A DNA stretch of 64,000 nt from Candidatus Poribacteria bacterium (GTDB lineage Bacteria; Poribacteria; WGA-4E; PCPOR2b): positions 2,016,001-2,080,000 of the forward strand of contig OZ242326.1 of the NCBI GenBank assembly GCA_965208325.1. Direction: 5' to 3'. The notes beneath the pieces are model-generated. The model was not told the DNA's origin. It did not search any database and saw only the letters and a list, made by a program, of their open reading frames with translations. Position 1 is the first letter of the stretch; each line of letters starts with the position of its first letter. Of the stretch, positions 15,297 to 22,187 are shown one piece after another. The translations under genes and the position numbers were made by a program.

Positions 15297-16065
15297 AGGG
15301 TTTCTCATAGATCTTGACGGGACGACATTTTTAGGCGATGACTTAATTCCAGGCGCCCTAATGTTCGTTGAAATCCTGCAAAAATTGGGGAAACCACATT
15401 TATTCTTGACGAACAACTCTTCTGAGTCGGCGCACACATATGTGGAAAAGCTGCGCCGCCTCGGAATTGATGCGCAGGATGGAAGCGTCTTAACCTCCGG
15501 CGATGCCACAGCCATGTATCTTGCGGACGCGGGATATACCAGGTTATTTGTTTTGGGGACGCCGAGTTTTGAAAATGAGCTAAAAGAATTTGGATTTATC
15601 CTCACATCTGAGCGTCCGGATTGCGTTGTTCTTGGATTCGATAAAACACTGAATTATCAAAAGCTCGAGATTGCAACGGATTTAATCCGTCGGAAAATTC
15701 CGTTTGTCGCAACCCATCCAGATAAGGTCTGCCCTACGGAAGACGGTTTTATTCCAGACTGCGGTGCGATTGCAGCGCTGCTTTCGGCTGCGACTGATGT
15801 CGATCCACTTGTCATCGGAAAACCCAAGCCGCAAATGGTTCAGATGGCGCTGAAGCGTTTGAATCTCGACTCGCGAAAGATCGCCATAATCGGCGACAGG
15901 CTGTACACGGATATACGAATGGGACGCGACGCCGGACTCGTAACGGTGCTTGTACTCTCCGGTGAGACTACGCCCGAAATGCTTCTGTCGGAAATTGAGA
16001 TGCGACCCCTTATCGTTGTAGAGCGCCTCGGGACACTATGCGGTTATTTATTGAATCTGTATTAG
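15241..16065 (+). CDS. HAD-IIA (NagD-like) phosphatase
   Basis: DLDGT, FLTNNS, GKP and IGDRLYTDI..G motifs. Confidence 0.9.
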   Translation: MNHSHLPAVVIREILTQLEGFLIDLDGTTFLGDDLIPGALMFVEILQKLGKPHLFLTNNSSESAHTYVEKLRRLGIDAQDGSVLTSGDATAMYLADAGYTRLFVLGTPSFENELKEFGFILTSERPDCVVLGFDKTLNYQKLEIATDLIRRKIPFVATHPDKVCPTEDGFIPDCGAIAALLSAATDVDPLVIGKPKPQMVQMALKRLNLDSRKIAIIGDRLYTDIRMGRDAGLVTVLVLSGETTPEMLLSEIEMRPLIVVERLGTLCGYLLNLY

Positions 16066-18101
16066 TTCGGTTAAAGACACCGAGTTTTCAAATGAGGGTC
16101 GCGATTCGGAGATCGCTCTTGCGGCGCGCGGGTGGAATTGGAAGGATGGAAGATTGGATGGGATTCCGATTTTAGATGATGGGTTCGTATTGTTTAAAAA
16201 TTGGGTTAGGTTCAGCTCGGGATTAGGGACGGTGTTCGTAATTGGCAATCAATTCGGATGGGAGAGGTTTTAAAAGCGTTGGGTTTCGCTACAACCATCG
16301 GATTTTGTACACGGATAGATTGACGGGAGCGGTTGGTTTTACTGGGCGATTATTGGATGAACCCGCTCTACCCAACCTACAAAAACTTGTCCACAAACTA
16401 AGATTAGAAGAAACCGAGTTTTGAAGAAAAAACTCGGTTTCAAATAAAGTCCGCAATTTGGAGATCGCTCTTGCGGTGCGCGGGTGGAATTGGAAGGATG
16501 GAAGATTGGATGGGATTCCGATTTTAGAGGATGGGTTCGTATTGTTTAAAAATTGGGTTAGGTTCAGCGCGGGATTAGGGACGGTGTTCGTAATTGGCAA
16601 TCAATTCGGATGGGAGAGGTTTTAAAAGCGTTGGGTTTCGCTACAACCATCGGATTTTGTACACGGATAGATTGACGGGAGCGGTTGGTTTTACTGGGCG
16701 ATTATTGGATGAACCCGCTCTACCCAACCTACAAAAACTTGTCCACAAACTAAGATTAGAAGAAACCGAGTTTTGAAGAAAAAAACTCGGTTTAAAATAA
16801 ACGCCGCGATTCGGAGATCGCTCCTGCGGTGCGCGGGTGGAATCGGAAGGATGGAAGGTTGGAAGGGATTCCGATTTTCGAGGATGGGTTCGTATTGTTT
16901 AAAAATTGGGTTAGGTTCAGCGCGGGATTAGGGACGGTGTTCGTGATTGGCAATCAATTCGGATGGGAGAGGTTTTAAAAGCGTTGGGTTTCGCTACAAC
17001 CATCGGAATTTGTACACGGATAGATTGACGGGAGCGGTTGGTTTTACTGGGCGATTATTGGATGAACCCGCTCTACCCAACCTACAAAAACTTGTCCACA
17101 AACTAAGATTAGGAGAAACCGAGTTTTGAAGAAAAAACTCGGTTTCAAATAATAGCCGCGATTCGGAGATCGCTCTTGCGGTGCGCGGGTGGAATTGGAA
17201 GGATGGAAGATTGGAAGGGATTCCGATTTTCGATGACGGGTTCGTATTGTTTAAAAATTGGGTTAGGTTCAGCTCGGGATTAGGAACGGTGTTCGTGATT
17301 GGCAATCAATTCGGATGGGAGAGGTTTTAAAAGCGTTGGGTTTCGCTACAACCATCGAATCTTGTACACGGATAGATTGACGGGAGCGGTTGGTTTTAAT
17401 GGGCGATTATTGGATGAACCCGCTCTACCCAACCTACAAGAGCTTGTCCACGAACTAAGATTAGGAGAAACCGAGTTTTGAAGAAAAAACTCGGTTTCAA
17501 ATAAAGTCCGCAATTTGGAGATTGCTCCTGCGGTGCGCGGGTGGAATTGGAAGGATGGAAGAAAGGGAGCGCATGAACATTCGGTGTTGAAGGGTAGGTG
17601 GATTGCGTAAGTCTTACGCTTTAATGGCCAAGCATGATTGTTTAAAAATTGGGTTAGGTTCAGCTTGGGATTAGGGACGGTGTTCGTGATTCGCAATCAA
17701 TTCGGATGGGAGAGGTTTTAAAAGCGTTGGGTTTCGCTTCAACCATCGGCATTTGTACACGGATAGATTGACGGGAGCGGTTGGTTTTACTGGGCGATTA
17801 TTGGATGAACCCGCTCTACCCAACCTACAAAAACTTGTCCACAAACTAAGATTAGGAGAAACCGAGTTTTGAAGAAATAGTATCAAATGACCTGATGATA
17901 GTTGGAATGCGCGTGGTTACTGACTTCGAGCCATCATCAAATGAGCGAGTTATGTTGGCTTAATTAGCTTATCCGTCAAGAAATTCATTTGGTTTGGCTA
18001 GAAGCGTGACAAAGTATACCAAAATGGCTATGGCGTGCCAAGCCGATGCCAAAGAAAGAGACGTTGTTTTCCCATGTCTAAGCAATAATAGGCGTATGCT
18101 G

Positions 18102-18995
18102 TCATTGCAAGTCTCCTGTAGGTTTGGAACTGGACGGCACGGTGTTATCTTTGCCGTCTTCCAAGTTTGCGTTGATGTCATTCAGCGAATGTTGAGGAAT
18201 TAGGTCGAGATATTGAGAGATGACGCGCTTGGAAAGTTTGGTAATCTGAGAGATTTTGTCAATGTCATCGGTAGCGGTGCGAACAATCTTAACGGACTCA
18301 TAATCATGGATGTATCGGTCAACAGCTTCTTTGGAGTGCTTGGTTTTGGCAGCAATGGTCGGAGTCAGGTGCCCTTGTAGATAAAGGGTAATAATCTCCT
18401 TCTTGTGTGTAATTGCCGCCGATAAATCGTGAATGTTGCCGCGAGTGGGCAAGATTTTTCCACTGGTGCTTTGCCACTCGTTGACATACTCACTCACTAC
18501 TGGGTCGCGGACGTTGAGCAACACAGCCAGGTCTAGTTGAGTCAACAATGCCCCTTGGTCATAGGCTTGATAACACCATCGCACCAATCGATGAATTCTG
18601 AGTTCACGAGAGCTGAAGCCGCTGTAATAGTGTTCAATGTCCTCGGGGGCCACAAAGCTTAAAACCACAGGCTTCATGCGGGTTTTAACGATTGACTTGG
18701 CTCTCTGTGGATATTCGTCAATCGGCACAGCCATCCAAACCAGTTGACCATAGCTAAGCATTCGTTCATCAGGAAGTTGTTCTCCAGCGGCGAGTTTATC
18801 AAGTGGCAAGCGAATCAGGAAATAGTCTTCAATAGTTTTGACGATGTCATCGACAATGGCTTTGGCAGTCACTTCGCCTTTGTCATACCCATAGGAATTG
18901 ATAAAGCGATGAATCAGCAACTGCCGCAACGATTTATCATTGATACGTCTGATTTTCTTCTCGTTGATTTCGGTTCGAGTCAATGATTTACTCAT
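18102..18995 (-). CDS. DUF1670-like protein B
   Basis: AYDQGALLTQLDLAVLL, PTRG..HD, THK..II.LYL.G and HS..AV.RY motifs; ATGA overlap with upstream gene. Confidence 0.8.
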   Translation of the reverse strand: MSKSLTRTEINEKKIRRINDKSLRQLLIHRFINSYGYDKGEVTAKAIVDDIVKTIEDYFLIRLPLDKLAAGEQLPDERMLSYGQLVWMAVPIDEYPQRAKSIVKTRMKPVVLSFVAPEDIEHYYSGFSSRELRIHRLVRWCYQAYDQGALLTQLDLAVLLNVRDPVVSEYVNEWQSTSGKILPTRGNIHDLSAAITHKKEIITLYLQGHLTPTIAAKTKHSKEAVDRYIHDYESVKIVRTATDDIDKISQITKLSKRVISQYLDLIPQHSLNDINANLEDGKDNTVPSSSKPTGDLQ

Positions 18996-19792
18996 GAGTT
19001 TTCCCCCTTTTTTTCATCAACGGGTTCAGGATGAAGTAAAGTCGTCATTCGCTCTGTATGTTCGTATTTATCATACAGGGAGAGATACTCACGAATCAAT
19101 CGGTCAGAGAGATGGGTGATGAGCCGTATCTGTTCCTTTGGAAAGTCTTGATGATGGAGGGTTGCTACCTGAGTGAAATTACGCAAGTATCTCAACACGG
19201 CGCGTTCGGTGTGGTTCGTCTTTCGCTCAATGTCGGTGAATTGATAGCCTTTAAAGTACAGTTCTAGGATTTGGGTTTTATGAGAGATGCCGGGGCCCAT
19301 GTCGTGTTTGGCGCCGCGAGTCATTACAAAAAACCCTTGCTGTTTCAACTGTCGAATGTCTCGTTTGACGGTCGCCGGGCTGGTGGTTAATAGCACCGCT
19401 AAATCTTCATAGCTGAGCAAAGCGTCTTGGTCATAGGCTTGTTTGGTTAACCGTAAGATTCGATGTCGTCTGAGTCCTGCAAGTCCATAGTTGGCTAACA
19501 CCTCAAGATCGGTGTGCACATCATTGAGGGTGAGTTGGCAGGAGACCTTTTTGGCTAAGGCAATGTGTTTACCTGCGGGTTCGTCGGCGGCTACGGCTTC
19601 ATAGCAGATTTGGCCTGATGTGAGTTTAATATCGGCGTGTTGGGCAAAGTAGGAAGAAATCTGATTATAGTAGGCTTCGGCAAGGATAGGCATCAGATTG
19701 AAGTCTGACGCAATCTTCTGAATAATTGCCGCTCTCGCCGTCTTTGATTCCAGACGATTGATACCGTAGTTTGAATGACTTTGTGGTTTCAT
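18992..19792 (-). CDS. DUF1670-like protein A (paralog of B)
   Basis: AYDQDALLSYEDLAVLL..S..TV.RD (HTH-like), TRG..HD, SHK and HT..AV.RY; GGAGG RBS supports ATG at 19792. Confidence 0.8.
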   Translation of the reverse strand: MKPQSHSNYGINRLESKTARAAIIQKIASDFNLMPILAEAYYNQISSYFAQHADIKLTSGQICYEAVAADEPAGKHIALAKKVSCQLTLNDVHTDLEVLANYGLAGLRRHRILRLTKQAYDQDALLSYEDLAVLLTTSPATVKRDIRQLKQQGFFVMTRGAKHDMGPGISHKTQILELYFKGYQFTDIERKTNHTERAVLRYLRNFTQVATLHHQDFPKEQIRLITHLSDRLIREYLSLYDKYEHTERMTTLLHPEPVDEKKGENS

Positions 19793-19841
19793 AATGACCT
19801 CCATGGATTCATGGTAATTGATGGAAATAACATCTGTTATC

Positions 19842-19870
19842 AGTTTAACTCATGGGGTCATTTGATACAA
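19842..19870 (-). promoter_or_regulatory. Putative inward promoter overlapping the terminal inverted repeat
   Basis: Minus strand TTGTAT-N17-TAAACT about 50 nt upstream of gene A. Confidence 0.5.
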
Positions 19871-20354
19871 ACTATAAAAAACTCGGTTTCAAATAAAAGT
19901 CGCGATTCGGAGATCGCTCTTGCGGTGCGCGGGTGGAATTGGAAGGATGGAAGATTGGAAGGGATTCCGATTTTCGATGACGGGTTCGTATTGTTTAAAA
20001 ATTGGGTTAGGTTCAGCTTGGGATTAGGGACGGTGTTCGTGATTCGCAATCAATTCGGATGGGAGAGGTTTTAAAAGCGTTGGGTTTCGCTCCATTCATC
20101 GGATCTTGTACGCGGTTAGGTTGACGGGGAATTTGGTTTTCATGGACGGTTTTTGGATGTATCCGCTCTACCCAACCTACAGGAGTTGTGTTTAAGAAAC
20201 CGAGTTTGCAAGAAAAAAACTCGGTTTCAATTAACATTTTGCTCGGCTTCAGAGTTTCGGCAGGTGCAGTTGGGAGACTAAACCTACCGCAGTGCAAATA
20301 AATTACGAGCTTTGCAATGATTTGGCGGAAGTCCTTGTTCGGAAGGAACTATTC

Positions 20355-22187
20355 ATGGAATACATAGTGTGTTTTATTGGAATTTGTGTGGTTGGCGGTC
20401 TCGGTTTGGCTGCCGTATGCGCAGCCGAACAGGGCTACCGGGAGACGCAGCTTCACGAGAAAGTCGTAGAACGCATTTACCAAGACGGCCGCCGGGTTTT
20501 GATGGTGAACGGGGATGAAATCGAAGATAGAACACCGAAACCCGACCCGGCTCCACAGGACATCACGCCCGAGGAACACGAACGCGGATACATCGTCTAT
20601 CGACGATCTGATTCTGACGGCGTCTTTCGTTTCAGCAGCCCCCAAACCGGTGAGCGAACTGCCGTTCTCTCGACGGCTGCGAGTCAGGACGAGAAACGGC
20701 ACGCGCAGTTTGCTATACGCGCGCTCCGAGATTTGGGGAGGGTAGATGTGGAACTTGGGGCATTGTCGAACGGGGATGGCGTCACGCTGCCGGTTTCCGC
20801 TGTTTCAGTTCGACCGGTGCGTATCGGCATTTGGAGAAACTATTGGGACCCGTTCTTTGTCGAGGCGCCGAAACTCTTAGATCATTATGACGCTGTGACC
20901 CGCGTGCACCGCGGGCAGAGCCAGCAGTTTTGGATTAGTTTTCACGTACCGCCGGGGACACCTGCCGGCAGATTTTCGGGGGACATTCATGTGCGTACCG
21001 AGCATGGCGGTGAAGCGGCGCTAAGGCTTGAATTGGAGGTTTATCCTTTTTCCCTGGCGCCCGGGCGATGGTGGGGCATCTACTACTACGGTCTGACAGG
21101 CGAGAAAACTGCACGGGACTTCGCTGACATGAAGGCACACGGCGTCAATTCGTTGCTCATCTGTCCTCCGGGGCACGTAGCGCCCGTGCTTGAGCGCGTC
21201 GGGGACCGCGTTACCGCTAGTTTTCCGCACACTGACAAGCTGATGGCTGAACTTAAACGTCAGGGGTTTAACAGGCAGGTGCCGTATTATCCCCGCATGT
21301 TAAGCTGCCGCGTGCTCGATCTCTTCGACCGTGTGGACGGTGTGAAATTCAAGCCCGGCGACTATTACGGCCAACGCTGCGTCGACTATAAAGCTGAAGA
21401 CTATCCCGAAGACCTGAAGGAGGTACTCAAAGATATTTTTCGCCAAATGGTTCAACACGCAAAGGAAGCAGATTGGCCGGAAATCCTCTGGTTCCTCGTG
21501 GATGAACCCGGTGCCGCAGCTTTGCACGAGCGTGAACTTGAATGGGCGAAGGTAGAATTCCCCCTGTTTGCGGAGGCATGCCCCGGCGAGAAATTGCTCT
21601 GTACGGCGTACTCACGCGACGTGATTGACGCTATCGGTGTCCGGCTTGATGTGCGTGTCGGGGAGTTGTGGCGCTTTACCGACGACGACCTGCAGCGTAC
21701 CGACGCGGACGATTCACAGCTCTGGGGTATTCGTTGGCTGTGTCAGCACAATGCCTACCGTTTTCCGCGGCACTTCGCCGGGTTTGGGCTCGACCGTATG
21801 GGGCTTGACGGTTTTACCGAATGGACGTACTACGGCGCACCCGTCTACCGACCCTACGACCAGATTATTGACTGGCAGGGTTGCAGTTACGCCTTTGAAG
21901 ATGAACATGGGAATCTCCTCAGCACGATTACCTGGGAAGCGGCGCAGGAAGGCATTGACGATGCCCGCTACGCGGCTACGCTGCGCGCACTAATTTCCAA
22001 TGGTGAGTCCTTGATGAACCGAGAGCATCAGCGGCTTGGCGGCGATGCGTCGGATTGGATTGAAACGCGCATCGCGGCAATTCCAAATCGCCCGGTTACC
22101 TTGCCCGAGGCGGAACTGGACGCATTGCGGCGGGAGATTGCGAATCAGATTATTGTGTTGATGGACGCGGGACTGTCCGCCGATTAG
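20355..22187 (+). CDS. Secreted putative glycoside hydrolase (GH123/DUF4091-like)
   Basis: Signal peptide; FWISFHVPPGTPAG.F.G, DEP and WEA..EGIDD.RY motifs; AAGGA RBS. Confidence 0.6.
   Translation: MEYIVCFIGICVVGGLGLAAVCAAEQGYRETQLHEKVVERIYQDGRRVLMVNGDEIEDRTPKPDPAPQDITPEEHERGYIVYRRSDSDGVFRFSSPQTGERTAVLSTAASQDEKRHAQFAIRALRDLGRVDVELGALSNGDGVTLPVSAVSVRPVRIGIWRNYWDPFFVEAPKLLDHYDAVTRVHRGQSQQFWISFHVPPGTPAGRFSGDIHVRTEHGGEAALRLELEVYPFSLAPGRWWGIYYYGLTGEKTARDFADMKAHGVNSLLICPPGHVAPVLERVGDRVTASFPHTDKLMAELKRQGFNRQVPYYPRMLSCRVLDLFDRVDGVKFKPGDYYGQRCVDYKAEDYPEDLKEVLKDIFRQMVQHAKEADWPEILWFLVDEPGAAALHERELEWAKVEFPLFAEACPGEKLLCTAYSRDVIDAIGVRLDVRVGELWRFTDDDLQRTDADDSQLWGIRWLCQHNAYRFPRHFAGFGLDRMGLDGFTEWTYYGAPVYRPYDQIIDWQGCSYAFEDEHGNLLSTITWEAAQEGIDDARYAATLRALISNGESLMNREHQRLGGDASDWIETRIAAIPNRPVTLPEAELDALRREIANQIIVLMDAGLSAD

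Follow-up and report, generated by a model that had tools for sequence, protein, structure and literature searches.

A conserved A-run at the junction of paired DUF1670 genes as a probable programmed slip site in an insertion sequence-like element of Candidatus Poribacteria

We describe an insertion sequence (IS)-like element in a stretch of 64,000 nucleotides (nt) from the genome of a Candidatus Poribacteria bacterium (GenBank assembly GCA_965208325.1, contig OZ242326.1, positions 2,016,001 to 2,080,000; from here: the window, numbered from its first letter). The element contains only two genes, A and B, both encoding proteins of the DUF1670 family. At their junction lies a tract of seven A followed by five G residues (A7G5, 19014-19003), which, judged from the comparative data, probably acts as a programmed slip site from which A, B and a 567-amino acid (aa) AB fusion protein would arise. 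An A-run at the homologous junction characterises the family, down to 30% protein identity.

According to our proposal, most expression would yield separate DNA-binding proteins, namely A (270 aa) and B (297 aa), the latter made from its own Shine-Dalgarno (SD) sequence and ATG. Less frequently, the message would gain a base or the ribosome would move back by one, so that reading continues from A into the frame of B, and either event would lead to the same single-chain AB protein (...E-K-K-G-G-K-L-M-S-K...). Two routes are conceivable: RNA polymerase may add an A or a G within the homopolymer tract, or the ribosome may shift by -1 on A_AAA_AAG. By analogy with IS1 and IS3 elements, the AB fusion might be needed for transposition or might regulate it. 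That slippage occurs, at which level and by which mechanism, and what the fusion does, is what we infer here.

Gene A (18992-19804, minus strand) was delineated from the list of open reading frames (ORFs), its Pfam match and a structure model, and gene B (18102-18995, minus strand), a DUF1670 paralogue of A, from the ORF list, its Pfam match and the comparison of the two proteins. Read directly on the minus strand, the 3′ codons of gene A are GAT GAA AAA AAG GGG GAA AAC TCA TGA. They contain the A7 run (19008..19014, minus strand), which has homologous runs in relatives, and immediately 3′ of it the G5 run (19003..19007, minus strand). The heptamer A_AAA_AAG (19013-19007, minus strand), drawn from the A7 run and base 19007, stands in the X_XXY_YYZ phase of gene A. 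The direct reading and the ORF list place an ATGA overlap at 18992..18995 (minus strand), in which the ATG of B occupies 18995-18993 and the TGA stop of A occupies 18994-18992. The frame of B is -1 relative to that of A, its ATG starting one base 5′ of the codon phase of A. From the run onwards, the -1 frame translates as K K G G K L M S K and enters gene B without a stop, and on the 5′ side two consecutive TGA codons in the same frame (19014..19019, minus strand, direct reading) abut the run. Because TGA TGA closes the -1 frame at 19019-19014, a productive shift can take place only between 19013 and 18995. A first-pass annotation, made by a model from the letters of the window, had described the end of gene A, the in-phase heptamer and the stop-free -1 frame, and each proved exact on direct reading. 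It had also proposed A, B and an AB fusion of approximately 560 aa; by hand count the predicted fusion has 266 + 4 + 297 = 567 aa, and strong comparative evidence, given below, speaks for this predicted set of products.

The first-pass annotation had suggested checking whether the heptamer is conserved, and homologous A/B junctions do retain the slippery tract. A set of close relatives comprises 64 loci from a species-genome collection, all hosted by Candidatus Poribacteria, which are sponge symbionts; 61 of their junctions were readable. Together with 16 loci of the clade described in the next paragraph, 80 genome loci were kept, 19 of them from a single assembly. Motif anchors first left 13 loci of the genome set and 13 of the metagenome set undecided, of which a looser reading settled 23; two disrupted copies (L095, L102) and one locus with an ambiguous frame (L099) stand outside the counts. 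B lies in the -1 frame at 57 of the 61 Poribacteria junctions, in the +1 frame at two, which have one A fewer, and is fused with A at two. The tracts of the 57 junctions with B in -1 are A7G5 (23), A6G5 (16), A5G5 (6), A8GGAG (5), A6GGAGG (3), A4G4 (2), A8G4 (1) and A7CGGAGG (1), and 48 of them present A_AAA_AAG or A_AAA_AAA in phase. The synonymous AAG AAG was found at none of the 61 junctions; AAG makes up 39% of the Lys codons elsewhere in these genes. The distribution of DUF1670 among the kin of the host is patchy, with matches in 16 of 61 genomes (host genome included), and complete loci there are always A-B pairs, at most ten per genome. Decayed copies were noticed in one Poribacteria genome (G006; L058, L059, L026, L095, L102), with B interrupted or containing an in-frame TGA. 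Their run has decayed to GAA AAG GGG, consistent with selection on the tract being relaxed in a dead element. The two A4G4 junctions belong to copies with a broken B.

A second clade, about 60% identical and here called the A9 clade, provided 16 loci from genomes and 80 from metagenomes; its hosts are Bacteroidota, Ignavibacteria, KSB1 and unclassified bacteria, in addition to many metagenomes. The frame of A at this junction reads GCN AAA AAA AAA TCC. B is in the +1 frame at 94 of the 96 junctions and fused with A at the other two, and the run is A9 in 76 of 96. All 16 genome loci have B in +1 (A9 in 15, A7 in one), as do 78 of the 80 metagenome loci, the remaining two being fused; run lengths among the latter 80 are A9 in 61, A8 in 10 plus the two fused loci, A7 in four, A6 in one and A5 in two. 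The distance from the end of the run to the ATG of B is 34 nt in 44 of 65 distinct junctions, and B has its own GGAGG there. Hence, the A9 run is clearly not part of the ribosome-binding site of B. Between run and ATG the B frame is open in 65/65 distinct split junctions, compared with 26/65 for the third frame (66 distinct junctions in the clade). No AAG codon occurs within the run; AAA accounts for 73% of the Lys codons elsewhere. With one A removed, the junction reads ..A K K N P .. M S K P L T K, exactly the sequence of five fused proteins and of the two fused loci.

The run extends to far more distant members of the family. A search of 1.84 billion cluster representatives returned 1,237 clusters at E≤0.001, among them many proteins with two modules (500-570 aa) and four with three (930-952 aa; P0016, P0019, P0023 and P0026, with three matched stretches each). 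Naturally fused tandem-DUF1670 proteins, which the first-pass annotation had recommended looking for, thus exist, and their number indicates that single-chain forms are a normal state of this family. In about 69 single-module representatives (29-57% identity), the C-terminal tail shows no conservation apart from K-K a few residues from its end in most of them, an uncounted impression. PF07900 was then searched in two other phyla, matching 9 of 301 and 23 of 167 genomes, and all 26 adjacent DUF1670 pairs with a returned locus were read; 17 of the 26 are only 30-40% identical to A. An A-run of seven to nine residues lies between the two domains in 25 of these 26 pairs, and such runs are enriched 22-fold at the junction (28 in 5,468 nt versus 7 in the 32,478 nt that code for the domains). 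Fifteen pairs have B in the +1 frame (A9 in ten, A8 in two, A7 in two, no run in one) and ten have it in the -1 frame (A8 in eight, A7 in two), the latter all with A_AAA_AAN in phase; in the last pair both genes share a single frame, with A8 in an A9-type context (G419). For 24 of the 25 pairs that have a run, lengthening or shortening it by one base would bring A and B into one frame; the 25th is in one frame already. The direction of the required shift varies between DUF1670 lineages. Two lineages carry exactly A_AAA_AAC at the junction, and fused variants apart, A and B were never found in the same frame with a mere stop between them. One genome (G448:C1) has six A-B pairs and, in addition, four identical solitary DUF1670 frames of 294 codons with no match to a partner adjoining; these may represent a different type of element.

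Several observations weigh against a programmed slip site in the window. No structure beyond that of shuffled sequences was found in the 92 nt 3′ of the heptamer (-15.6 kcal/mol, z -0.36, equalled by 66 of 200 shuffles) or in the 91 nt around the site (z +0.52), and direct reading revealed no SD-like or GGAGG-like sequence 10-14 nt 5′ of the heptamer. The host genome has both tRNA-Lys(UUU) and tRNA-Lys(CUU) (ARAGORN), the second of which should lower shifting on AAG, as stated in a part of Sharma et al. (2014, PMC4066793). A run of seven A's is at the low end for slippage of the bacterial RNA polymerase: A7 followed by G5 stands at the reported lower limit, and relatives have A8-A9. The tract is also not strictly kept, since B is in +1 at two Poribacteria junctions and at L018, and 9 of the 57 junctions with B in -1 have weaker tracts (N_AAA_AAG, GAA_AAG, AAA_AAA_ACG). 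The Poribacteria loci, many from the same genomes, reduce to 35 distinct junction sequences; copies within a genome and in related genomes are not independent, so that the counts overstate the evidence. Moreover, the AAG GGG part of the tract is accounted for by the SD of B alone. Because the run adjoins a good SD with only four to five codons to the ATG of B, the open -1 frame carries no statistical weight in the window. Finally, B can be translated independently in all lineages, and therefore a fusion is not obviously required.

Several of these points also speak for an alternative that we regard as rather improbable, yet the strongest of the competing explanations: the tract would be the ribosome-binding region of B, an A-rich leader plus AAGGGGG, placed within the Lys-Lys tail of A, with A and B coupled through ATGA and acting as a heterodimer, and slippage would be tolerated noise. 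AAGGGGG, i.e. the last two A's and the G5 run, is located 7 nt 5′ of the ATG of B and can pair at seven positions, one of them G-U, with the host 16S rRNA, which ends in CCUCC; it is likely the SD of gene B, in agreement with the first-pass annotation, which had named the G-run as a possible ribosome-binding site. In the Poribacteria the tract adjoins this SD, 12 nt from the ATG of B, and hence AAG GGG and the open -1 frame can be explained there without recoding. In each of the lineages examined, B comes with an SD and an ATG of its own, and the missing stimulators and the tRNA-Lys(CUU) fit this alternative as well. In addition, the relevant section of Baranov et al. (2005, PMC1088944) reports that a functional role could not be found in 40 of the 53 groups of genes that carry 9A or 9T runs. 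The A9 clade argues otherwise: the run there is mostly well separated from the GGAGG of B, and the B frame is open from run to ATG at every distinct split junction, unlike the control frame. A ribosome-binding region would also hardly account for a run that persists at 30-40% identity and is enriched at the junction, for the lack of synonymous AAG within the run though AAG forms 27-39% of the Lys codons elsewhere, or for the lack of split genes in the same frame.

Natural one-base variants bear on a further alternative. One Poribacteria genome has A7G5 in three copies and A7G6 in the fourth (L039), which thereby acquires an open frame of 579 codons; the 564-aa protein starting at its Met reads ..E K K G G Q L M G K.., as predicted for a -1 shift. 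A second locus, L042, is A6G6, its relatives being A6G5, so that both of these fused variants correspond to the tract with one extra G (G6 instead of the G5 run). In the A9-type context, A8 instead of the usual A9 accompanies fusion in two metagenome loci (L119, L162) and in G419, and the loss of one A has brought B into +1 in L068, L097 and L018. From such variants in both directions one could argue for a switch at the DNA level, in which replication slippage toggles copies between a split A + B allele and a fused, active AB allele, and 'pseudo-pseudogene' cases are described in the part of Baranov et al. (2005, PMC1088944) that deals with them. We consider this quite unlikely, given that the run length is strongly kept (A9 at about four fifths of the A9-clade loci), that all four host copies are identical, and that fused forms are rare: five fused proteins of 529-559 aa (from the 474-2000-aa class) stand against 946 split-length relatives at E≤1e-10, each of the five being one sequence on one contig. 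Some of the one-base variants may also be homopolymer errors of the assemblies. Mere chance, that is, an in-phase heptamer happening near a gene overlap, is scarcely credible: AAAAAAG by itself is not rare (13 in the window versus 20.2 expected from shuffles, 1,080 in the host genome), so that its weight comes from position and conservation and not from presence, and the -1 stretch is short, yet the comparative conservation already contradicts this explanation.

Regarding the mechanism of the putative programmed slippage, the sequence offers what a ribosomal -1 shift needs, namely an in-phase X_XXY_YYZ heptamer and a -1 frame that opens exactly at the run and extends into B. Flanking structure was lacking not only in the window: in 58 distinct contexts of the A9 run, mean z scores against their own mononucleotide shuffles were -0.39 upstream and -0.52 downstream. 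The sections of Sharma et al. (2014, PMC4066793) on IS elements report A_AAG-type motifs in 46 of 83 species having both tRNAs and note that an IS may want only a low amount of fusion protein and use low-efficiency sites. In view of this, and of IS1, which works without an established stimulator, neither the missing stimulator nor the tRNA-Lys(CUU) disqualifies a ribosomal shift here, and the A5G5 and A6G5 tracts of some Poribacteria copies look short for polymerase slippage; a ribosomal shift on A_AAG fits them better. A -1 ribosomal shift cannot, in contrast, yield a fusion where B is in +1, which applies to 94 of 96 A9-clade loci and 15 of 26 remote pairs; lineages of this arrangement are the majority outside Poribacteria. 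In the passages concerned, Baranov et al. (2005, PMC1088944) recognise programmed transcriptional slippage by a run conserved in length together with a conserved fusable ORF arrangement in non-identical homologues, a combination that they found mainly in IS elements. A conserved run and a conserved arrangement of this sort are both present in this family. We therefore lean slightly towards RNA polymerase slippage as the route that would better fit the family as a whole, because only slippage explains both frame arrangements. For the window itself we would place the transcriptional route just ahead of the ribosomal one, in a rough estimate that comes close to a balance. The -1 ribosomal mechanism of the dnaX and IS3 type, which the first-pass annotation had proposed, is not specifically supported, given the lack of stimulators, the presence of tRNA-Lys(CUU) and the +1 position of B behind A9 in the best-sampled related clade. 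The family may use both routes, by analogy with dnaX, for which ribosomal and transcriptional routes are used in different bacteria. Contigs assembled from four RNA-library runs of relatives span the junction with 0 gaps and without a listed insertion at that place; such contigs lose minority forms. These libraries cover small shares of the element (0.07-0.12) at the contig level and may contain DNA, so that they prove neither transcription nor the presence or absence of slippage.

The two proteins pass the gathering threshold of Pfam DUF1670 (PF07900; 25 bits) by a wide margin, with E values of 7.6e-64 and 1.1e-59 and scores of 215.5 and 201.9 bits for A and B, respectively, and are 34% identical to each other. 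The structure model of A (predicted local distance difference test score 90.5) consists of N-terminal helices with a beta-hairpin, a winged helix at about residues 105-170 and further helix-turn-helix (HTH) units at 172-260. Pfam recorded DUF1670 and HTH families only and no transposase family for either protein, NCBIfam gave nothing over its cut-offs for A and B, and a Foldseek search of the A model against the PDB gave no match at E≤0.001. In a wide VIA-align comparison, the A model matched only winged-helix and TrpR-like DNA-binding domains, all of them single HTH domains (best Z 6.9). In the model of A we thus recognised no catalytic fold, which does not prove that there is none. A tblastn search of A against plasmids yielded no match. 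Homologues are named hypothetical protein, biotin operon repressor or DUF1670 protein in their sources, never transposase, and a full-text literature search for DUF1670 and PF07900, with supplementary files outside the search, found no paper. A and B have the whole module in common, and relatives with two modules in one chain are frequent, which suggests that the working unit of these predicted DNA-binding proteins is a pair of modules, either an A+B heterodimer or an AB chain. A prediction of the A-B complex scored 0.27 against a mark of 0.32 and speaks neither for nor against such a complex. In an alignment of 71 A-type sequences at 29-57% identity, R163 is invariant, and G64, G78, D99, R118, Q126, D134, G164, G170, H175, H198, Y206 and Y240 are nearly so, making them candidate functional residues in a protein without a recognised active site. 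A tyrosine recombinase, considered because R163, H175, H198 and Y206 resemble integrase box II, was dropped, since the model places these residues in HTH helices and the structure searches matched no integrase fold.

The element itself extends over 1999 bp as read from its ends (17877..19875, minus strand), the limits at which the flanks diverge in an alignment of four copies. The host genome consists of one contig of 4.7 Mb and contains four 100% identical copies of a stretch of about 2030 nt. A and B are the sole long ORFs of this 2.0-kb element. The four-copy comparison placed terminal inverted repeats at 17877..17892 (B end, ATAGTATCAAATGACC) and 19856..19875 (A end), with like ends in other genomes; they form imperfect inverted repeats (ATAGT..ATCAAATGACC). 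All four copies are inserted in the loop of one and the same type of hairpin, the halves of which flank the element in the window on the plus strand at 17858..17876 (left) and 19876..19890 (right), as established from the four-copy alignment and a genome-wide hairpin search. This hairpin resembles repetitive extragenic palindromic (REP) elements and has 82 intact matches in the genome (≤3 mismatches) compared with 0 for a reversed control pattern. The loop holds six A's in all but three of the 82 intact hairpins and 2+6 in filled sites, pointing to a 2-bp duplication by the element. Elements with near-identical ends and the same TT flanks were found in another Poribacteria genome and in one unrelated bacterium. 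Terminal inverted repeats, a target duplication and several identical copies at unrelated sites are hence all present, as in an IS, and a recognisable transposase (DDE, HUH, serine or tyrosine) is not. The comparison with IS orfA/orfB drawn in the first-pass annotation is thereby substantiated, as A and B reside in a multi-copy element with inverted ends.

Hairpins of this type are often clustered in arrays in the host, at spacings of about 160-490 bp, for example at 16410-16441 and 17467-17498 in the window. The element splits a tandem array of 352-bp units (16086-17876 and 19876-20234), which amounts to 4.2 copies at 95% according to Tandem Repeats Finder and to six according to the repeat family, each unit ending with the 32-nt target hairpin. 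ORFs inside the 352-bp units look like repeat artefacts, and Rfam gave no match at E≤0.1 over 15500-20400. In one Poribacteria genome (L074-L077, L080, L081), the flanks at the B end are alike over about 70 nt in five of the six copies shown, indicating that the element again resides within repeated sequence there, other than the hairpin of the window genome.

Slippage at the orfA/orfB junction is a hallmark of several IS families. Conservation of the site in DUF1670 gene pairs from 96% to 30% identity is independent sequence-level evidence that a mobile element works through these unannotated 'regulators', and that their covalent A-B form matters. The conserved site makes a testable prediction on the active form of a widespread, undescribed element without a recognised catalytic domain. 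For annotators it implies that split copies, or copies differing by one base, should not be called pseudogenes. Going further, one may speculate that the A-run dates back to the origin of the DUF1670 element family, that the protein is an HTH-only transposase of an undescribed kind, and that its active form is a single-chain pseudo-dimer made, in the split lineages, only by programmed slippage at the run, with RNA polymerase adding a base where B is in -1 and dropping one where it is in +1. We hold this extended scenario to be tentative and somewhat doubtful; if true, it would describe a self-limiting family of elements in which recoding sets the rate of transposition.

What appears to be new is the A-run at the A/B junction throughout the DUF1670 family; in kind, it would be an instance of the well-known IS orfA/orfB recoding. 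Known sites of ribosomal -1 frameshifting on A_AAA_AAG include dnaX and members of the IS3 family, for example IS911 and IS150. The window has the same heptamer in the same phase and an orfA-orfB-type fusion in a mobile element, but none of the upstream SD-like elements, downstream hairpins or pseudoknots known from these systems was found at its site. In IS3-type families, orfB as a rule has no independent translation, whereas B has its own SD and ATG. In IS1, InsB′ carries the catalytic domain, whereas both halves of the pair described here are paralogous and look DNA-binding only. The frameshift of IS1 insA/insB′ on A_AAA_AAC is proven without an established stimulator, according to the relevant part of PMC4066793, and the DUF1670 element resembles it in its stimulator-free slippery run and in the proposed combination of a small DNA-binding product with a rarer fusion.

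A close counterpart on the transcriptional side is IS1447 of Clostridium thermocellum, a member of the IS3 family, for which PMC6211511 reports programmed transcriptional slippage on A9 in both directions, at about 16% each, and states that seven A's suffice. In both systems an A-run lies in the orfA/orfB overlap of an IS and a one-base change of the transcript fuses the frames; the run is A7 in the window and A9 in the related clade. IS1447 differs in encoding a DDE transposase and in having its run after an mRNA stem-loop; A and B are DUF1670 paralogues without a recognised catalytic domain or detected flanking structure, and slippage at their junction is inferred from sequence. Among the elements in the corresponding parts of Baranov et al. 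(2005, PMC1088944) are IS with conserved 9A runs from Deinococcus, Nostoc, Mesorhizobium, Streptococcus and Sulfolobus, with variants of 8-10 A's among copies; composite sites of two short homopolymers appear in those parts only for the editing sites of paramyxoviruses. The A-run of the window is, in contrast, short and joined to a G-run, and unlike in the IS families described there, the direction of the shift differs by lineage in DUF1670, with +1 behind A9 and -1 behind A5-A8. With these IS elements, the DUF1670 family shares fusable ORFs in non-identical homologues, a run within their overlap and length variants of this run among copies.

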